Source: a virus (taxonomy: Duplodnaviria; Caudoviricetes). From it: a stretch of DNA of 29,157 bases. The translations under genes were made by a program, and so were the position numbers. The DNA lies in the IMG/VR virus record IMGVR_UViG_3300020045_004185, positions 1 through 29,157 of that record. The stretch is one strand, 5' to 3'. This document shows, piece after piece, positions 782 to 29,157 of the stretch (its first letter is position 1; each line of letters opens with the position of its first letter). The notes beneath the pieces were generated by a model. It made no database searches, was not told the DNA's origin, and worked only from the letters and a program-made list of their open reading frames with translations.

Positions 782-901
782 CACTTACTACTCTCCTGAT
801 TAAAATACTTAGACGGAAGACATGTCAACCACATAGGATGGTGCTCATACCAAGGCAGTTTAGTATCGGGATGTGGAACAATATCAATTAGTTTAGTGAT
901 T

Positions 902-922
902 GGTGCGTTTATACGTATGTTA
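902..922 (-). repeat. terminal half-site of cassette array B (putative attI-like site)
   Basis: TAACATACGTATAAACGCACC, 20/21 identical to 11374-11394; no matching right arm found. Confidence 0.75.
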
Positions 923-1914: not shown

Positions 1915-2108
1915 TATGAAAAATTTATAAAATCATTACTTTCGGTCACTGTGGGTTCTGGTTTGTCATGCTTTTTAAATACATTATCCCATTTCTCGGA
2001 CTTTTTGAACCTTACATAAAGGTAGATAAACAAGCCTATGTTTAATAAACATAGTGTTAAAATAATATTTTCCATAGCTTTAAATTTTAGTTGAGTAAAG
2101 TTAAACAA
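1914..2108 (-). CDS. small membrane protein (true start probably MENIIL)
   Basis: Single hydrophobic segment followed by a basic stretch. Confidence 0.55.
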   Translation of the reverse strand: MFNFTQLKFKAMENIILTLCLLNIGLFIYLYVRFKKSEKWDNVFKKHDKPEPTVTESNDFINFS

Positions 2109-2125
2109 TTATTTTTAATATACAA

Positions 2126-2623
2126 TTACTTTATATTAAATTTTTTACACCAATAGAGTAAATCAACCATCCGCTGGCACATTTCTGCATGAAGACATAC
2201 TCCTTTGTAAGTGTTTACACTGTTTAGTTTTTCAACTCTTTTAGTCCATATTTCGGCCAACTGCCTTAATGTGGTTGTTTTTGTTCCATACACTTTCAGT
2301 AGCCATGAAATATAATCATAGTCATATTTAACCCGCTTTTCAGTTTCGATATAGTTTTGTATTCGCTTTACTGCATTTATAACAGTTGCATGGTTTACGT
2401 TTGTAAGTTCTCCAACCTGCATAAGTGAGTATTTTTGCCTTAAAAAGAATTGTAGCATCTGTCTTTTTTCAAGTATTTCGGCTTTCCTTGTCTTGCTTAA
2501 TATGGTTGCCTTATCGGTTCCATAATATTCGCAAACTATTTTAGTTATTTTATTGTGGTCCATGTTTAATAATTTAGGTACAACGTTATTTAATAAGTTT
2601 ACTCCTCTGTTATTCGTTTCCAA
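2126..2623 (-). CDS. DnaA C-terminal-like HTH DNA-binding protein
   Basis: IVCEYYG...ILSKTRKAEILEKRQM...SLMQVGELTNVNHATVINAVKRI matches the DnaA domain IV pattern. Confidence 0.75.
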   Translation of the reverse strand: METNNRGVNLLNNVVPKLLNMDHNKITKIVCEYYGTDKATILSKTRKAEILEKRQMLQFFLRQKYSLMQVGELTNVNHATVINAVKRIQNYIETEKRVKYDYDYISWLLKVYGTKTTTLRQLAEIWTKRVEKLNSVNTYKGVCLHAEMCQRMVDLLYWCKKFNIK

Positions 2624-8427: not shown

Positions 8428-8468
8428 CTTTTTATGCAATTTATATTCATTATAAATAACAATATTTA

Positions 8469-8500
8469 TTTGTATATTAAAATTATTTGTTTAATTTTAC
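8469..8500 (+). promoter_or_regulatory. rightward promoter reading into cassette array A
   Basis: TTTG...TAATTTTA; near mirror copy of 8396-8427. Confidence 0.5.
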
Positions 8501-8524
8501 ATCAATAAAGAATAACGATTTATA

Positions 8525-8648
8525 TAACGTATACGGATATGTGCAGTGCCGATATTAAAACTCGCACGAACTTTAATAAATAGTAATATGAAAACTAAAC
8601 AGAAAAAAGTAAAAAAAGATAAAAAGGCATTGCATATAGCCGATATTA
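8525..8648 (+). repeat. attC-like site A1 (124 nt)
   Basis: TAAC..CGGATATGTGCAGTGCC / GGCATTGCATATAGCCG..ATTA (core G replaced by A). Confidence 0.7.
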
Positions 8649-8731
8649 GCAAATCGTTTTGTGTTGTGTGCAAAACCGAACCAGCAGTAATTAAAGGACG
8701 TTGTTGTACCTGCCACTACGATTGCCCTTGA
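8588..8731 (+). CDS. cassette 1: 47-aa Cys-rich protein starting inside site A1
   Basis: MKTKQ...ALHIADISKSFCVVC...CCTC. Confidence 0.55.
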   Translation: MKTKQKKVKKDKKALHIADISKSFCVVCKTEPAVIKGRCCTCHYDCP

Positions 8732-8746
8732 TTACAAACTGTTTGC

Positions 8747-8870
8747 TAACGGTGTGGCTAACCGTAGTTGATGGAAATTGAAATATTAACTTTTAAATTT
8801 ATAAGACATGGATTTATTTACCGAACTTGGAAACATACTTAGGCCTGAAATTACGGTTGAGCCAGTGTTA
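8747..8870 (+). repeat. attC-like site A2 (124 nt)
   Basis: TAAC..TGGCTAACCGTAGTT / AATTACGGTT(G)AGCCA..GTTA, one extrahelical G. Confidence 0.75.
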
Positions 8871-9023
8871 TGCACAGGTTTTTACCGTTGTGGGTATTGT
8901 GGGCAACCTACTGATAAGGATGGAAGGCCATTAGATTATGAAGAATATAAATTGTTTACTGAGGATAATTTAAGTGATGCGGAAGCGGTGCATGGTTATT
9001 GTTGCCCACCAGAGCAATGGTAA
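8808..9023 (+). CDS. cassette 2: Cys-rich hypothetical protein starting inside site A2
   Basis: CGYCG...HGYCC; stop just before site A3. Confidence 0.65.
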   Translation: MDLFTELGNILRPEITVEPVLCTGFYRCGYCGQPTDKDGRPLDYEEYKLFTEDNLSDAEAVHGYCCPPEQW

Positions 9024-9031
9024 CTTATGCC

Positions 9032-9154
9032 TAACATTAAATGTATGAAATGTAGGCGGATAGGAATTACTGCCTTATCCGACTGCACGAACTAAATAGA
9101 AAGTAGAAAAGTATAAACCTGCACTGAACCGCCTATATTTTATACATATTGTTA
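9032..9154 (+). repeat. attC-like site A3 (123 nt)
   Basis: TAAC..ATGTATGAAATGTAGGCGG / CCGCCTATATTTTATACAT..GTTA. Confidence 0.8.
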
Positions 9155-9182
9155 GGCGTATGTGCTTTAATTTAAAATCGAA

Positions 9183-9416
9183 ATGATACATAAAGTTGAA
9201 ATGTTTACAATCAAATGCGATAACTGCGGAAAGTTATTCGAGGATGAGCATCAAGGATTTTGCGCTTGGAACTGTGAGAATGGAGCTTGGGATAATGCAA
9301 GTGATTCTGATTGGCATAAAGAAGATTACAATATTCATTATTGCCCCGATTGCTATTCTTTTGATGATGAAGATAATTTAATTCTCAAAAAAGTCGATGC
9401 CGATGCTGTTTCTTAG
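9183..9416 (+). CDS. cassette 3: Zn-finger-like hypothetical protein
   Basis: CDNCG...W...HYCPDC. Confidence 0.75.
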   Translation: MIHKVEMFTIKCDNCGKLFEDEHQGFCAWNCENGAWDNASDSDWHKEDYNIHYCPDCYSFDDEDNLILKKVDADAVS

Positions 9417-9425
9417 CATTACACC

Positions 9426-9549
9426 TAACGGTTCGTGTATGATTAGTAGCGGATTACGAGTGATAAACTTTCAAAATATAACAAATGATTGAACGAGATA
9501 CAGAACTTCAAAATAGCACTGAAACCGCTATTAATTATACACGGTGTTA
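9426..9549 (+). repeat. attC-like site A4 (124 nt)
   Basis: TAAC..CGTGTATGATTAGTAGCGG / CCGCTATTAATTATACACG..GTTA. Confidence 0.8.
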
Positions 9550-9610
9550 TAAGCCGTATTTGTTTGATTGTCAATTTAAAGTAAAATATTTTGAAAATAA
9601 ATAGCTTTTT

Positions 9611-9645
9611 ACTTGTATATATCATATATATTATATATCTTTACT
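9611..9645 (+). promoter_or_regulatory. internal promoter/operator of cassette 4
   Basis: TTG...TATCTTTA flanking the near-palindromic ATATATCATATATATTATATAT. Confidence 0.45.
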
Positions 9646-9675
9646 TCATAATTAATAACAATTAAAAATACGATT

Positions 9676-9918
9676 ATGAAAGCAACTATTAGTCAATTAT
9701 GGGAAACTGGACGTGAACTTATAAACTTTGATGGTGATGAATTTGAACGCCCACAGTCTTTTGCAGATTTGAAAAAATGTGAAAACGTGCTTTTAGGTGA
9801 TAAAATACCAGGAACAAAGATGCGTGAAGTGCTTATAGATAATTCTATTGTACTTGTTGAACCTATGACAGTAAGACACCCAGCAGGTGGAACCATGTAT
9901 ATACTCGAAGTACAATGA
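9676..9918 (+). CDS. cassette 4 gene a: hypothetical protein
   Basis: ORF track; A-rich leader. Confidence 0.7.
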   Translation: MKATISQLWETGRELINFDGDEFERPQSFADLKKCENVLLGDKIPGTKMREVLIDNSIVLVEPMTVRHPAGGTMYILEVQ

Positions 9919-10055
9919 AAAAAATAATAGATATACCAGAAACCATACTGCAAGAACTCAAAATCCTTGCAGTAAAATCGAATAAAGACTTGAAAAATTT
10001 TATTCAGGACGAACTTAAAAAACTTGTCGAAAACTCTCAATCGAAGCCGTCTTAA
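9915..10055 (+). CDS. cassette 4 gene b: 46-aa ribbon-helix-helix-like protein (not in ORF track)
   Basis: MKKIIDIPETILQELKILAVKSNKDLKNFIQDELKKLVE; ATGA overlap; stop abuts site A5. Confidence 0.7.
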   Translation: MKKIIDIPETILQELKILAVKSNKDLKNFIQDELKKLVENSQSKPS

Positions 10056-10064
10056 TATGGCTTA

Positions 10065-10180
10065 TAACGGTATGCGTATTGGCGTTGTTGCTAACACGAA
10101 TGTTAAATTGAAATACAAAACTTGATAATATGGAAAAAGATAAATTGAAAAACAAAAGCAATAACGCTAATACGCTGTTA
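10065..10180 (+). repeat. attC-like site A5 (116 nt)
   Basis: TAAC..GCGTATTGGCGTTGTTGCT / AGCAATAACGCTAATACGC.GTTA. Confidence 0.8.
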
Positions 10181-10396
10181 TGTGCTGATAATTTTACGGG
10201 TTACTTCGATGATGCTAACAAACCAATTTTTGTTGGTGATAAATTAAGAAGTGAGTGGAATTATGAAGTAATTGTAGTAAAAGACGAAGATGGTGATTAC
10301 AGCGGGAAATTGGTTTGTGATGATAACCACAGTTGTAAAAATATTCCTTATGCTTTAAATAAAGGCAAAGGTTATAGTAAAATTATTTGCACATAA
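10130..10396 (+). CDS. cassette 5: YopX-like C-terminal domain protein starting inside site A5
   Basis: FTGYFDDANKPIFVGDKL resembles the YopX motif TGLKDKNGKEIYEGD; its TAA stop is the TAA of the next TAAC. Confidence 0.6.
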   Translation: MEKDKLKNKSNNANTLLCADNFTGYFDDANKPIFVGDKLRSEWNYEVIVVKDEDGDYSGKLVCDDNHSCKNIPYALNKGKGYSKIICT

Positions 10397-10517
10397 CGTT
10401 TGGTGCTATGAGCAGTGCAGGATTAGAAACCACAAAACTATCAAATTATGATGAAGTTAATAAATAGTACAAACATTGAAAAACGCAGAAACCCTGCATT
10501 GCTTATAGCACGTGTTA
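10394..10517 (+). repeat. attC-like site A6 (124 nt)
   Basis: TAAC..GTGCTATGAGCAGTGCAGG / CCTGCATTGCTTATAGCAC..GTTA. Confidence 0.8.
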
Positions 10518-10557
10518 GGTGTCTGTATTTTTTAATTTTTTTAGGGGGGCTTTTTTT

Positions 10558-11322
10558 ATGATTTTACGAAGATTAGGAAATAAACAAATGATTGCTGAAA
10601 AAATACAAAAGCAATTTCCGAGCCATAATATTTATATTGAACCTTTTTTCGGTGCTGGTGGTATGTTTTTTAACAAACCAAAAGCAAAATATAATATCGT
10701 AAATGATTTGGATTCTGATGTTTTTAACTTATTTCAAGTTGTAAGCACTCGATTAGATGAACTGAAAAAAGCATTTGAATTAATGCCTATTCATTCGGAC
10801 TTACTCGAATATTGGAAAACAAATACAGAAGAAGAACCAATAAGAAAGGCACTAAGGTTTTTATTTATGAGCAATTTTACATACTTAGGTAAAGGAACAA
10901 CCATTGGGCTTGTTTGTGGAGATAGTAAGGGATTTTTAATGAGCAAAATTGATGAGACTGCAAAGTTTTTATTTGATGTGCAGTTTGCAAATTTTGATTT
11001 TAGAAAATTTATAAACAGCCTTTCTTTTAGAGATGAAGTTGAGCAAAGCAAATCATTTATTTATTGCGACCCACCATATTTGGGAACAGATGATAATTAT
11101 TCACACTCATTTACTGAAAATGATAGCAGTGAATTATTTGATTTGCTTTGTAATTCTGGGTGCAGATTTGCAATGAGTGAATTTGACCACCCGTTTATAT
11201 TAAAACAAGCCGAACAAAGAAATTTAAATTTAATCGTAATAGGAGAAAGGAAAAACTTAAAAAACCGTAGAACTGAAATTTTAATTACAAACTATGAAAA
11301 TGCACCTACTCTCTTTTCCTAA
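10558..11322 (+). CDS. cassette 6: D12-class (Dam-like) N6-adenine DNA methyltransferase
   Basis: GNK, YIEPFFGAGG, NDLD and YCDPPY motifs; ATG 10558 preferred to GTG 10519. Confidence 0.9.
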   Translation: MILRRLGNKQMIAEKIQKQFPSHNIYIEPFFGAGGMFFNKPKAKYNIVNDLDSDVFNLFQVVSTRLDELKKAFELMPIHSDLLEYWKTNTEEEPIRKALRFLFMSNFTYLGKGTTIGLVCGDSKGFLMSKIDETAKFLFDVQFANFDFRKFINSLSFRDEVEQSKSFIYCDPPYLGTDDNYSHSFTENDSSELFDLLCNSGCRFAMSEFDHPFILKQAEQRNLNLIVIGERKNLKNRRTEILITNYENAPTLFS

Positions 11323-11373
11323 CGGTTTTGAAAAAACCGAGTGCGTGGGCAAAAAATTAAAAAATATTGCACC

Positions 11374-11394
11374 TAACATACGTATAAACACACC
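11374..11394 (+). repeat. terminal half-site of array A (putative attI-like site)
   Basis: TAACATACGTATAAACACACC; 20/21 identical to the reverse complement of 902-922. Confidence 0.75.
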
Positions 11395-11531
11395 TACTAC
11401 TTATGTTATTATCAATCAACTACTTAACTAATCTATTTAACATTTATATTATAGTCGTACAATAAACGTTTTTGTAATTGATAATCAACAACATATCCAA
11501 TTAAATTGCTAAACGTTTATAAACGGATAAT

Positions 11532-11556
11532 AAAAAAGCCGGGATATTAACCCGGC
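11532..11556 (-). terminator. intrinsic terminator after the lysis genes
   Basis: GCCGGG-7nt-CCCGGC followed by T6 on the - strand. Confidence 0.75.
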
Positions 11557-26145: not shown

Positions 26146-28427
26146 ACGTTATTTATTTCGTTGTATGAATACTCAAAATCCAAAACATAATTAATAAGCT
26201 GGTCATTTATTCGTGTTTTAAATTCCAAACTTTTAGATTTTAAATTAACCGGTATAGTTGTACCGTTGTAAAGCATCCATATTTTTTCAGACAATAACAG
26301 TTCTTTTATTGAACTATTACTCGATTCAGGAATAAAACCGCTACTTAACTGGATATTTGTTTTACCGTTTATATTAAAATCCGTAAACTGATGATAACTG
26401 TCTGATGGCTGTTGACCAAAACCCTGATATTTTTCTCCTGTTATTGCTATGCTTTCTTTCCGCTGTTTTCGCATTGATACAGTTTGCTGGCATCCGTATT
26501 TGTTTATAAAATAAATATCAGTATTGATATGCTTTTCGTCATCGTCTAAAAGGATACGAATAGTTTGAGCGCCAACTGTTACTAATATCTGACCATCCGA
26601 TCCAGCCCCCAATCCTGCTATATTTATTTCATTATTACAGAATTTAGAAAAACTATGGAAACAGTGTCCAGAGCTTGCAGTTACTCTATTTAAAATAATT
26701 TCATAAATTGAAGGTGACAAATATGCTTGTGATGTTATGGAATTAAATGTATTATAAATAAATTCATTATCTAATATAAGTACATAAGCTCCATGATTAT
26801 ATATTGTTTGTGTTCCAACGCTATTTATTAATTTACTATGCTTGCATATGTAATTAGATAAAGATGCTATTGTTGGAAATGATGCAATATTTAAAATATA
26901 ATCCGATGTATTTGTAAAATAAGAATCATTTATAAATACATTTCCAGTTAAAGTGTTTGTAAATAAAGCACCGCCTAAAGAAATAGTATTTGTAATTGTA
27001 ATATTTCCAGCACCACGATACCATATTGTTCTTTGTATGCTTACCCTTGAAAAATAGCATTTATTAATAGTCAAATTAAGGCCATTGCATGTTAATCCTT
27101 CAGTAGTTGTATTTGGAATAATATTTAATCCTTCCAATGTTATACCATTTGCATACAATTGTATGGTATAACTTTGTGATACAGTTGGTTGCAACACCAC
27201 ATTACCCAATCCATAAAAAGTAATATTTGCTTTTGAGCAAGTAACATTTTCAACATATTTTCCACTATAAATATAAATCCTATCTCCTGCAGTTGCCGCT
27301 GTAATTGCTGCTGAAATAGTTGCATAAGTCTTACCGCTTCCAACCTCACGTATATTTGAAGCCTGTTTTGTTGGTACGCTAAAATAATTATTTACCGTTG
27401 TTAAGTCTGCGCCTGTTTTAACGGTGTTATATAGAACAATCTTTTGAACTGACGGTTGCACAACCTCCATATCGTAATCCTCAAAAACACCTGTTATATG
27501 TGTTTCTATGGGTACTGATACAACTTGTTGAGCGTTATGTAAACAGAATATTTTACCAGCATAATCCACATTTTCAAAGAATGAAACTACTGGTATTTGA
27601 TTTGGTATACCGCCAGTATAAAAGAAGTTGTTTAAATCGGATGCTATCAAAGTGGCATTTCCTGCGGGTGCTGAAACGGTTGCTGCTGTTTTGTATGGAA
27701 ATCCTTTAGTCCAATCAGTGTCGAAGTCATAACCTGTAATAAGCAAATCGGCAACGCCTTTTTTACCTTTGAAGTATTTTGTTCCTGTTACGTCAATTAC
27801 TGTTCCATCCCAATATTCGACTGCATCGGAGTAAAATGGTACTAAGTAACCAAACCTTGCTAATATACTTTTAATACCATTTATTACATAAGTATATGGG
27901 TTATTTGTTGTTGGTATTGTATCATCAACAAATTCAATAAATTCATTATCCGTATCGGGTGTAGCTGTTATTACGTTTGAACCTTCTGGAATTTGATGAT
28001 CTCCAACGTCAGGATTAACAGTCCCGTTGCCTTCTTTTGTAACTGTTAATGTCCAATAAGTAATAATAGCTTTTACATATCCCACAATCACGGTAGCTTT
28101 ATCAGTAAACCATACCAAAGTACTTGTAAAAAAAGTTTGAGTTGCCTCTCCATCGGGAGTAATCTCTATTTTTTCAAACTCATCTACTAAAGGATTGGTT
28201 ACTGTTACTTCGATTGTGATATTGCCTTCATCTTTTAACCCGCTCGATGGTGTGATTGTTCCCGCTCCGTTTACTGAGGTTGTTACTAACCATTGTTTTA
28301 TAAAGTTGGCTACCAAAGTAAAAGATTGCAAAGCTTTAATAGCAATTGGATTTACCAAACTTTCAACACTATTATAAAGCCATTTTAAAAAACGAAAACA
28401 AATAATTATGAATCTAAAATTTATCAT
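26142..28427 (-). CDS. mosaic tail/adhesin protein (B-repeat-like and beta-helix regions plus tail C-terminus); 5' end probably truncated
   Basis: LTVTKEGNGTV repeats, VGSGKTYATISAAI...G.Y.E beta-helix cap, C-terminal FINKYG...LLLSEKIW; first ~18 codons look spurious. Confidence 0.6.
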   Translation of the reverse strand: MINFRFIIICFRFLKWLYNSVESLVNPIAIKALQSFTLVANFIKQWLVTTSVNGAGTITPSSGLKDEGNITIEVTVTNPLVDEFEKIEITPDGEATQTFFTSTLVWFTDKATVIVGYVKAIITYWTLTVTKEGNGTVNPDVGDHQIPEGSNVITATPDTDNEFIEFVDDTIPTTNNPYTYVINGIKSILARFGYLVPFYSDAVEYWDGTVIDVTGTKYFKGKKGVADLLITGYDFDTDWTKGFPYKTAATVSAPAGNATLIASDLNNFFYTGGIPNQIPVVSFFENVDYAGKIFCLHNAQQVVSVPIETHITGVFEDYDMEVVQPSVQKIVLYNTVKTGADLTTVNNYFSVPTKQASNIREVGSGKTYATISAAITAATAGDRIYIYSGKYVENVTCSKANITFYGLGNVVLQPTVSQSYTIQLYANGITLEGLNIIPNTTTEGLTCNGLNLTINKCYFSRVSIQRTIWYRGAGNITITNTISLGGALFTNTLTGNVFINDSYFTNTSDYILNIASFPTIASLSNYICKHSKLINSVGTQTIYNHGAYVLILDNEFIYNTFNSITSQAYLSPSIYEIILNRVTASSGHCFHSFSKFCNNEINIAGLGAGSDGQILVTVGAQTIRILLDDDEKHINTDIYFINKYGCQQTVSMRKQRKESIAITGEKYQGFGQQPSDSYHQFTDFNINGKTNIQLSSGFIPESSNSSIKELLLSEKIWMLYNGTTIPVNLKSKSLEFKTRINDQLINYVLDFEYSYNEINNV

Positions 28428-28548
28428 CCTATTACTTGCCCTGATTGTTTTGTCTGGTTGTTTAAATCGTAAGTATGATTCGAATAGTTATAATTTTCGG
28501 TTTCGTCTCGAACAGGGGAATATGAGTGATTTAAATAAACATAATTAA
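28408..28548 (+). CDS. 46-aa putative lipoprotein (not in ORF track)
   Basis: MNLKFIILLLALIVLSGC lipobox. Confidence 0.5.
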   Translation: MNLKFIILLLALIVLSGCLNRKYDSNSYNFRFRLEQGNMSDLNKHN

Positions 28549-28557
28549 CAAATAAAC

Positions 28558-28746
28558 ATGAATAAGAAATCCGCCCCAAAATACAAAAAGGTTACTTTAA
28601 ACGAATTGTTTGATGTTTTAAGTTTTTATGCGGACAAGGAAAATTATTATAGTCTTCCAACTCCCGTACTTAATGATAATGGTAAAAAAGCCCGCAAAAT
28701 ACTAAAAAGATTATTAAAAGAACAATTGGATATTATAAACAAATAA
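28558..28746 (+). CDS. hypothetical protein
   Basis: ORF track; A-rich leader. Confidence 0.65.
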   Translation: MNKKSAPKYKKVTLNELFDVLSFYADKENYYSLPTPVLNDNGKKARKILKRLLKEQLDIINK

Positions 28747-28750
28747 AAAC

Positions 28751-29008
28751 ATGAAAGTCAAAACCTTAATCCAAAAACTCCAAAAACTAGACCCCAATTA
28801 TGAAGTTATTCTGGCTTCAGATTCGGAGGGCAATTCTTATCATGAATTAAATTCTGTAAACAATGACGAAATACATTACGCTCAAAGAATAGAAAGATAT
28901 GATGACGGTATGAGTTTTGAAAGAGAAATAGAACTTGGGGATTTATGTGATTTTAAACCGGTTACTGGTTATACAAAGCCTAAAAAATGTATTGTATTGT
29001 ATCCTTGA
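28751..29008 (+). CDS. hypothetical phage protein
   Basis: MKVKTLIQKLQKLDPNYEVILASDSEGNSY...IVLYP, a common small-phage-protein pattern. Confidence 0.75.
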   Translation: MKVKTLIQKLQKLDPNYEVILASDSEGNSYHELNSVNNDEIHYAQRIERYDDGMSFEREIELGDLCDFKPVTGYTKPKKCIVLYP

Positions 29009-29018
29009 TTTAAAAAAT

Positions 29019-29157
29019 ATGAAAAAACTATTATTTTTAATATTAACAACATTATTAATTCCTATAACCTTAAAATCTCAAGATGATTTTCCGTGCCGCC
29101 TTGACATTCAGGTTTATGGTAAATCTTCGATATTATTAACACTGCATAATCCTCTAA
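29019..29157 (+). CDS. exported protein, partial
   Basis: MKKLLFLILTTLLIPITLKSQ signal peptide; frame open to the window end. Confidence 0.55.
   Translation, partial: MKKLLFLILTTLLIPITLKSQDDFPCRLDIQVYGKSSILLTLHNPL

Follow-up and report, generated by a model that had tools for sequence, protein, structure and literature searches.

We find that a 29,157-base contig of a tailed phage (IMG/VR record IMGVR_UViG_3300020045_004185, analysed as a whole and hereafter termed the window) carries, at positions 8525-11377 of its + strand, a region that six TAAC...GTTA hairpins of 116-124 nucleotides (nt) split into six gene-bearing units, the start of each unit's cargo being complementary to the unit's own end. 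We consider it probable that this is a mobile cassette array, the units of which a short, Xer-like enzyme of the tyrosine recombinase family, provided by the host or by another phage, moves as circles at a TAAC core. A broader proposal, that Bacteroidota and their phages possess in such arrays a second integron system of separate evolutionary origin, with a recombinase that lacks the IntI insertion and reads T.G wobbles in two 11-bp boxes on folded single strands, genes flipped by the phages so that every cargo is headed and translated from its hairpin, and frames reloaded from start codon to stop codon, is more tentative, and we regard it as plausible though short of likely.

Hairpins and end pairing

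The hairpins, here numbered H0 to H5, open with TAAC at 8525, 8747, 9032, 9426, 10065 and 10394, and measure 124, 124, 123, 124, 116 and 124 nt respectively; a seventh TAAC, at 11374, stands without a partner arm. Conserved AAC and GTT triplets lie at the hairpin base in five of the six. H0 has ATT, and because its end reads ATTA instead of GTTA it is possibly decayed. All six fold better on the + strand, and in five of them wobble pairs (G.T) occupy the place of flipped-out bases, an unpaired G occurring in H1 alone, at -8 relative to GTT.

The segments downstream of these hairpins start at 8645, 8867, 9151, 9546, 10177 and 10514, and their matching ends lie at 8750, 9035, 9429, 10068, 10397 and 11377. 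An earlier note, drawn up from the letters of this DNA, had described each GTTA start as the reverse complement of the next TAAC end, and all six pairs are present where it placed them, with match counts that hold, the sixth pair requiring a one-base gap (25/28 columns). Compared without gaps over positions 5-30, cognate ends match at 84 of 156 positions against a permutation mean of 51.8; non-cognate pairings do not equal them, the cognate score being reached by 1 of 720 orderings. Past the 7-bp box, at positions 8-18, there are 36/66 cognate matches (reached by 2/720 orderings), and when a one-base shift is allowed, positions 5-10 and 12-15 together, two blocks picked from the segments of relatives with the window excluded, give 52/60 against 31.3 (1/720). 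Over positions 5-14 the flanks of a unit's own hairpin match at 25/60 and cognate ends at 41/60, with the exception of H2, whose flanks match each other at 7/10 against 5/10 (ungapped) for the ends of cassette 2. Position 11 is T in all six units, facing G directly in three and after a one-base shift in the other three.

The same pattern extends across related phages. Hairpins were called in 96 loci (three shuffles of the window gave 0, 0 and 1 calls), and pairing was assessed in 109 distinct segments between consecutive hairpins from 43 loci, excluding the window; the 61 loci selected by hairpin were chosen by a one-arm pattern, a choice that may skew the make-up of the arms but not how well cognate ends pair. 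Cognate identity in these segments is 0.54-0.83 at positions 5-10, falls to 0.03 at position 11, returns to 0.65-0.77 at 12-15, and is at background from 16 onwards, and at position 11 a T.G wobble, with T on the 5' side, occurs in 89/109. Over positions 8-18 there are 614/1199 matches against 377 +/- 13.5, a value reached in 0/5000 permutations (within loci, 540 against 397). Pairing at positions 21-30 is not significant (224/5000 permutations), and it exceeds 15 bp in only 8 of 261 phage units (units that were defined by end pairing, and hence are no evidence for it), to which cassette 5 of the window adds a further case. Consequently, a general long pairing past position 15 can be dismissed, and of the 10-27 bp given in the earlier note the extension beyond 7 bp survives, in the form of a fixed module of 15 bp. 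In 20 segments from host arrays of the same family the full pattern recurs, with T.G at position 11 in 18.

The note's figure of about 7 bp for integrons was too low: classical cassettes pair to 9-10, and not at 12-15, in 17 segments of a Vibrio integron and 9 of a Shewanella integron (found by folding, some miscalls included), and pairing reaches 9-11 nt according to Bouvier 2009 (PMC2727003). Pairing to 9-11 nt is therefore a known integron trait, and what is new is the T.G wobble at position 11 followed by the block at 12-15. The best reading of this addition is an extended box for protein binding, and not simply the longer hairpin that the note had expected of a circularised cassette. The value of end pairing here is that it maps this box.

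A matching feature lies within the stem, where a G.T wobble occurs 15 nt before GTT in 171/182 hairpins, and at -10 or -12 in 145. The inner 3' arm reads T-N6-T-A-N-C from -15 to -5, mirroring the outer T-N6-TAAC; no bulge is needed in 182/184 called hairpins (by a caller that penalised bulges), and the commonest unpaired central spacer is asymmetric, with 5 against 2 nt. From these features we infer that the asymmetric spacer is flanked by two boxes of 11 bp. The hairpins fall into length classes of 88-90, 123-127 and about 186-199 nt, with translation starts in the long hairpins and hardly any in the short ones.

The features of the array and its edges, all on the + strand, are listed below (aa, amino acids; ORF, open reading frame):

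8467..8509, +, putative promoter-like AT-rich motif before the array; an inverted repeat (81%)
8525..8648, +, hairpin H0, 124 nt, closing with ATTA and not GTTA
8525..8750, +, cassette 0: H0 and a 47-aa Cys-rich ORF (8588-8731) that starts in the loop
8747..8870, +, hairpin H1, 124 nt, atypical, with a single unpaired G 8 nt before GTT, as in attC1 of phage P12002L
8747..9035, +, cassette 1: H1 and a 71-aa ORF (8808-9023) that starts in the loop
9032..9154, +, hairpin H2, 123 nt; no ATG-started frame crosses its junction
9032..9429, +, cassette 2: H2 and a 77-aa Zn-ribbon-like ORF (9183-9416; phrog_17873)
9426..9549, +, hairpin H3, 124 nt; its loop holds the start of a 39-aa ORF (9485-9604)
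9426..10068, +, cassette 3: H3, a promoter-like motif, an 80-aa ORF (9676-9918) and a 46-aa ORF (9915-10055)
10065..10180, +, hairpin H4, 116 nt
10065..10397, +, cassette 4: H4 and an 88-aa ORF (10130-10396) that starts in the loop and stops on the TAA of the next TAAC
10394..10517, +, hairpin H5, 124 nt; a 37-aa ORF (10448-10561) starts in its loop, and its stop overlaps the methyltransferase start
10514..10557, +, cassette 5, 5' frame: T-rich leader up to the ATG at 10558
10558..11322, +, Dam/D12-class N6-adenine DNA methyltransferase, 254 aa (PF02086, E 2e-21; TIGR00571; phrog_56)
11321..11377, +, cassette 5, 3' frame, with a small hairpin, a G-rich motif, an A-rich arm and the end box
11367..11410, +, terminal site, made up of cassette 5's end box and, behind it, sequence resembling 886-922 (- strand)

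Mobility and the recombinase beside related arrays

The earlier note proposed looking for the same cassettes beside different neighbours in other genomes, and these were found. Cassette 4 is intact in two other contigs, of 71 kb (L001, 90% identity) and 210 kb (L002, 88%), with different neighbours on both sides, and the DNA that they have in common spans the upstream TAAC to the downstream TAAC. A contig from public run X6 repeats 10065-10398 at all but 3 positions and has a loose end before 10064. Contigs of runs X1 and X2 contain an exact copy of the body of cassette 2 (in X1, 9143-9428 is unchanged), loose ends occur behind 11377 in contigs of runs X3 and X8, and a contig of run X7 joins 10398 to 9037, that is, the end of cassette 4 to an H2-type hairpin at the TAAC core. 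The crossover maps within TAAC(G), and no finer. Since the same unit has different neighbours, and since ends pair only within a unit, the conclusion that the cassettes are mobile, with an end signature of the circle type, is supported at the level of sequence. Separately, the frame of cassette 2 (9151-9176 and 9405-9429) surrounds other middles in X1 and X7, with joints at 9172-9176 to 9405-9409.

The unit that moves is larger than the GTTA-to-TAAC stretch of the earlier note, which omits the hairpin before the cargo. Among the 261 units, from 100 loci, this upstream hairpin is kept (80-98%) in all five same-cargo pairs of which both neighbours have changed. As the hairpin that moves with the cargo is the upstream one, the genes are flipped relative to those of integron cassettes.

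A candidate enzyme is found beside related arrays. A tyrosine recombinase of 263-289 aa (PF00589, PF13495) lies right after the last TAAC in four loci (L028, L035, L043 and L053), and the contig L002, which shares cassette 4, also encodes it (as locus L127). In 80 loci fetched by the recombinase alone, a set that includes some near-duplicates and the contig of the query, the sequence upstream of the recombinase (273 kb) holds 226 hairpins on the recombinase's strand, with none downstream (359 kb) and none on the other strand; a hairpin is present in 51/56 of the recombinase loci with 1.5 kb of upstream sequence, and a conserved TA-rich terminal site stands 37-47 nt before the recombinase start (57 distinct sites). 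A scan of host genomes returned at least 80 loci from 3 of 64 parts, of which 42 were examined, 28 of them sorted as Bacteroidota by title. Thirteen of these 28 have hairpins on the strand opposite the recombinase, in 12 of them downstream of it, and one of the 14 non-Bacteroidota loci has an array. This locus, L177 of Desulfitobacterium sp. Sab5 (Bacillota), bears the same site family, with hairpins of 69-73 nt, next to a recombinase relative of 368 aa.

In a tree of 42 proteins (midpoint root, only two IntI included), phage and host enzymes group together (support 100/99), and neither the two IntI, which also group (100/99), nor E. coli XerC/XerD fall within their clade. The IntI insertion is missing from the array-linked enzymes (about 43 residues in the alignment, about 48 against 2a3v), which score 152-216 bits on TIGR02249, under its cut-off of 265, and fall below the XerC/XerD cut-offs (TIGR02224/TIGR02225); their best family and structure matches are archaeal XerA-type (NF040815, PDB 4a8e). 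This insertion has been called indispensable to the working of integrons (PMC8138268), and has been noted as not fully conserved in the integron-like subgroup of Smyshlyaev 2021, so that the array-linked enzymes may already have been counted in that subgroup, without a described function. In two cultured phages, Ingeline_1 (L297) and Freya_10 (L298), an annotated 'integrase' stands directly after the terminal TAAC, with hairpins upstream; judging from this arrangement, it may be the cassette recombinase and not a prophage integrase. The integrase of L038 was considered and is of another kind.

Gene orientation, cargo and setting of the array

Of the 261 phage units, 247 have their main ORF on the wobble strand, 5 have it on the opposite strand, and 9 have none. 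This ORF starts inside the hairpin in 108/152 hairpins of 101-135 nt against 4/83 of 81-100 nt, and stops most often 13 nt (62) or 1 nt (56) before the end of the unit. In the window, five of the six loops contain an ATG with a frame that crosses GTT, the frame of H5 stopping on the methyltransferase start. The gene-before-attC order of integrons is not the rule in phage units but is present in host arrays, and in 8 host loci viewed closely the cassette genes run opposite to the wobble strand, as in classical integrons, and in the same direction as the recombinase. Sites on the lagging-strand template have been reported to recombine more (Loot 2017, PMC5371416), and the flip of genes onto the folding strand could permit a higher turnover in phages. 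An array of Flavobacterium cellulosilyticum (L183) contains, at about 10184-11284 (- strand), a 366-aa ORF that begins like a methyltransferase, is encoded by the wobble strand and ends at the TAAC. A cassette of phage type is thus present among those of a host, which is a hint of phage-host exchange.

Cargo is also exchanged within conserved frames. The leader of cassette 5 (to the ATG at 10558) and its tail (from 11321) enclose unrelated genes elsewhere, including a gene with a PAPS-reductase domain (L089), a Mom-family gene (L091), and another methyltransferase-like gene (L090; labelled from its sequence and ORF cluster), and runs X8, X9 and X10 show the same break between frame and cargo. 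A 19-nt core of this tail occurs in 35 viral loci, and among the matches listed at least 20 ORFs that end at it, that of the window included, form 11 groups without a BLAST link. The 80-aa gene of cassette 3 recurs at 90% nucleotide identity in L094 and L095, where no hairpin was called. A G-rich motif occurs near both ends of many long cassettes (28/140 of the units from loci L028-L176, against 12.6 expected); the idea of a target duplication of this motif around cargo was rejected, as its two copies resemble each other no better than shuffled pairs do (254 against 265).

The - strand of the contig encodes DnaB, KilA-N, HNH, portal, protease and tail-like genes, and the array is thus opposed to its neighbours, with a reversed GC skew. 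Of the named phages, those of Cellulophaga and Olleya match the array region best, which makes a host in the Bacteroidota likely. The promoter-like motif before the array has copies at 2086-2128 (- strand) and at 9606-9660 (+, inside cassette 3), and cassette 3 looks like phage DNA captured with its own promoter and two genes; a sigma-70 promoter scan was at chance level (22 against 19.0). Neither Pfam nor PHROG yielded a family for the 47-aa ORF of cassette 0, and a 'YopX-like' label for the cassette 4 ORF was dropped, as searches of the same two collections gave it no support. Between the array and the convergent genes of the lysis region lies a GC-rich hairpin with an A/T run (11538-11556), a likely terminator. 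The first 900 bases of the contig (199-930) have a G+C of 0.40 against 0.33 in the adjoining early genes and contain an 83-aa ORF without a family; 28420-29157 is likewise on the + strand.

Mechanism, rival explanations and significance

The mechanism that we favour would work as follows. The recombinase, which the contig lacks, would be supplied by the host or by another phage. On circularisation, the end and the start of a unit would zip up below its hairpin and complete the outer 11-bp box (T-N6-TAAC), which would mirror the inner box (T-N6-TANC, -15 to -5 of the 3' arm) to give a dif-like site of two boxes on folded single-stranded DNA, read via wobble pairs and not flipped-out bases. Within the array the outer box would be a mismatched hybrid of two cassettes, and for this reason the circle may be the better substrate, which would favour insertion and keep the ends under selection. 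As the coding strand has the hairpin ahead of the gene, a translation start can lie in the hairpin loop, and a cassette would be expressible after its move.

Several observations weigh against this mechanism. No circle junction was found in contigs of 8 public runs, so that, of the circle-integrated cassettes proposed in the earlier note, mobility and the end signature within units stand without the junction itself; no run among the matches listed holds half of the words searched for, none of those listed is an RNA run, and the comparison was with contigs only. When the junction was folded with the unit's upstream hairpin, the circularised site folded better than the array form in four of the six cassettes, but not in cassettes 1 and 2. 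The X7 joint is one contig at a depth of 3.6, and a body does not always keep its hairpin: where two bodies begin with similar sequence over 50 nt (68 pairs), the hairpins are at least 75% identical in 43 pairs and less than 65% in 11, and the L001 relative of cassette 1 bears a different hairpin (57% identical to H1). The recombinase is within 6 kb in only 4 of the 61 hairpin-selected loci and is absent from the window contig (best tblastn E 0.12), and the single-strand step is suggested by the wobble bias in sequence. Moreover, the last site of the window scores -5.5 bits on the primary-site profile (rank 9/620), below all 57 training sites (leave-one-out range -2.3 to 22.8), and the intact primary site first suspected at 11374 was thereby ruled out. 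With no recombinase in the contig and its last site off the profile, the array of the window may be inert. It appears to have grown at a pre-existing secondary site with the enzyme acting in trans, or else to have lost its enzyme, and the terminal site at 11367..11410 is likely such a secondary target. Two exact metagenome scans returned 0 matches to the array ends, and 19 array-less loci with the left-flank gene (33-64% identity) are free of hairpins but too distant to show an empty site. A TAAC-led motif with an 8-base palindrome occurs in three copies (886-922, -; about 1275-1290, -; and 11374-11410, +, which closes the array), possibly a phage operator used as a secondary target.

The absence of both enzyme and primary site, together with the lost G of GTT in H0 and the exchange of hairpins and cargo at places other than TAAC, would also fit a fossil array, built by a recombinase in an ancestor, the units of which now move mainly by homologous recombination between hairpin arms or frames. 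This bears on present activity and not on origin, and we think it unlikely, given near-identical single units with sharp TAAC borders in unrelated contexts and given that all six ends still pair. It is more doubtful still that the array is an ordinary cluster of attC sites lacking an integron integrase (CALIN), with classical attC sites, reversed genes and a host IntI. The AAC/GTT core, the unpaired spacer and the end pairing are as in attC, H1 has an unpaired G, and the array of Polaribacter phage P12002L was called a CALIN by Qi 2023 (PMC9892861), with an attC2 construct that recombined with IntI1. However, the enzymes neighbouring related arrays fall outside the IntI clade, lack its insertion and score under the TIGR02249 cut-off, wobbles replace flipped-out bases in five of the six window hairpins, the 12-15 block is absent from classical cassettes, and attC1 of P12002L, the site most like H1, was the single failure among six sites offered IntI1 (PMC9892861).

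Least probable, in our judgement, is that the hairpins and the end pairing act at the RNA level, as structures by which an early phage transcript is regulated in its translation or processing, with mobility secondary. Such a role would suit the coincidence of wobble and coding strands in 247 of the 252 phage units with an ORF, and the starts in the loop of 108/152 long hairpins and of five of six in the window. In the 8 host loci examined, however, the cassette genes are encoded opposite the wobbles, so that the strand bias follows the polarity of the site and not transcription; an Rfam search of the window at E up to 1 returned nothing but a chance snoRNA match, and folding leaves the one-sided link with the recombinase unexplained. 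Flavo-1 (RF01705; Weinberg 2010, PMC2864571) is a repeated hairpin element of Bacteroidota. It was considered for the hairpins and rejected, as it has no covariance match in the window and one in 10 related loci, outside the array (L197).

In favouring a recombinase-driven cassette array we place it beside known systems. It is like integrons in its tandem units, imperfect AAC/GTT hairpins, asymmetric unpaired spacer, variable loop, end pairing within the cassette, and better folding of one strand, and, among its relatives, in a conserved terminal site beside a tyrosine recombinase and in the homogeneous sites of chromosomal arrays (PMC2727003, PMC4889954, PMC5371416). It is unlike them in that its ends pair to 15 with T.G at 11 (classical, 9-10), wobbles at -10/-12 and -15 replace flipped-out bases, the recombinase is outside IntI and lacks its insertion, phage genes lie behind their hairpins on the strand that folds, many with the start codon within the hairpin, and host arrays combine classical gene orientation with a co-directional recombinase. 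The array would work like an integron but lacks three of its hallmarks, namely IntI, flipped-out bases and a gene before the site, and of the earlier note's integron comparison the shared end pairing holds, while the enzyme is not IntI and pairing past 7 bp was already known. Among Xer systems, dif consists of two 11-bp boxes in dyad symmetry. This arrangement appears to be shared, and archaeal XerA-type enzymes are the closest to the recombinase, but the array-linked enzymes form a clade separate from E. coli XerC/XerD, the predicted substrate is a folded strand, and the sites are many, variable in sequence, and bound cargo genes.

The sites of phage P12002L belong to the new family, with 9 hairpins in two methyltransferase clusters and no integrase; its attC1 (30056-30008) lies directly before the methyltransferase gene gp35, on the same strand. 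Qi 2023 (PMC9892861), which lists 17 phage CALINs, treats two P12002L sites as attC of divergent direction, and in its accessible text the 15-bp module, the flipped genes and the recombinase are not described. This partial CALIN call was all that a literature search, with subscription journals mostly outside its cover, returned for such arrays.

Almost no integrons are reported from Bacteroidota (Bacteroidetes) by IntegronFinder 2.0 (PMC9024848), and the literature describes the genesis of cassettes as for the most part unexplained (PMC5371416, PMC4792948). A cassette system that runs in parallel to integrons, with an enzyme and a site code of its own, would fill the Bacteroidota gap and show a second route to folded-DNA recombination, and phages would gain a way to restock DNA-modification genes, which are likely protective against restriction. 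The frames with exchanged cargo offer a handle on the origin of cassettes, and, if the proposal is true, would expose the genesis step in cultured phage-host pairs. Since the cultured phages Ingeline_1 and Freya_10 encode the candidate enzyme downstream of such sites, these claims are open to experiment.

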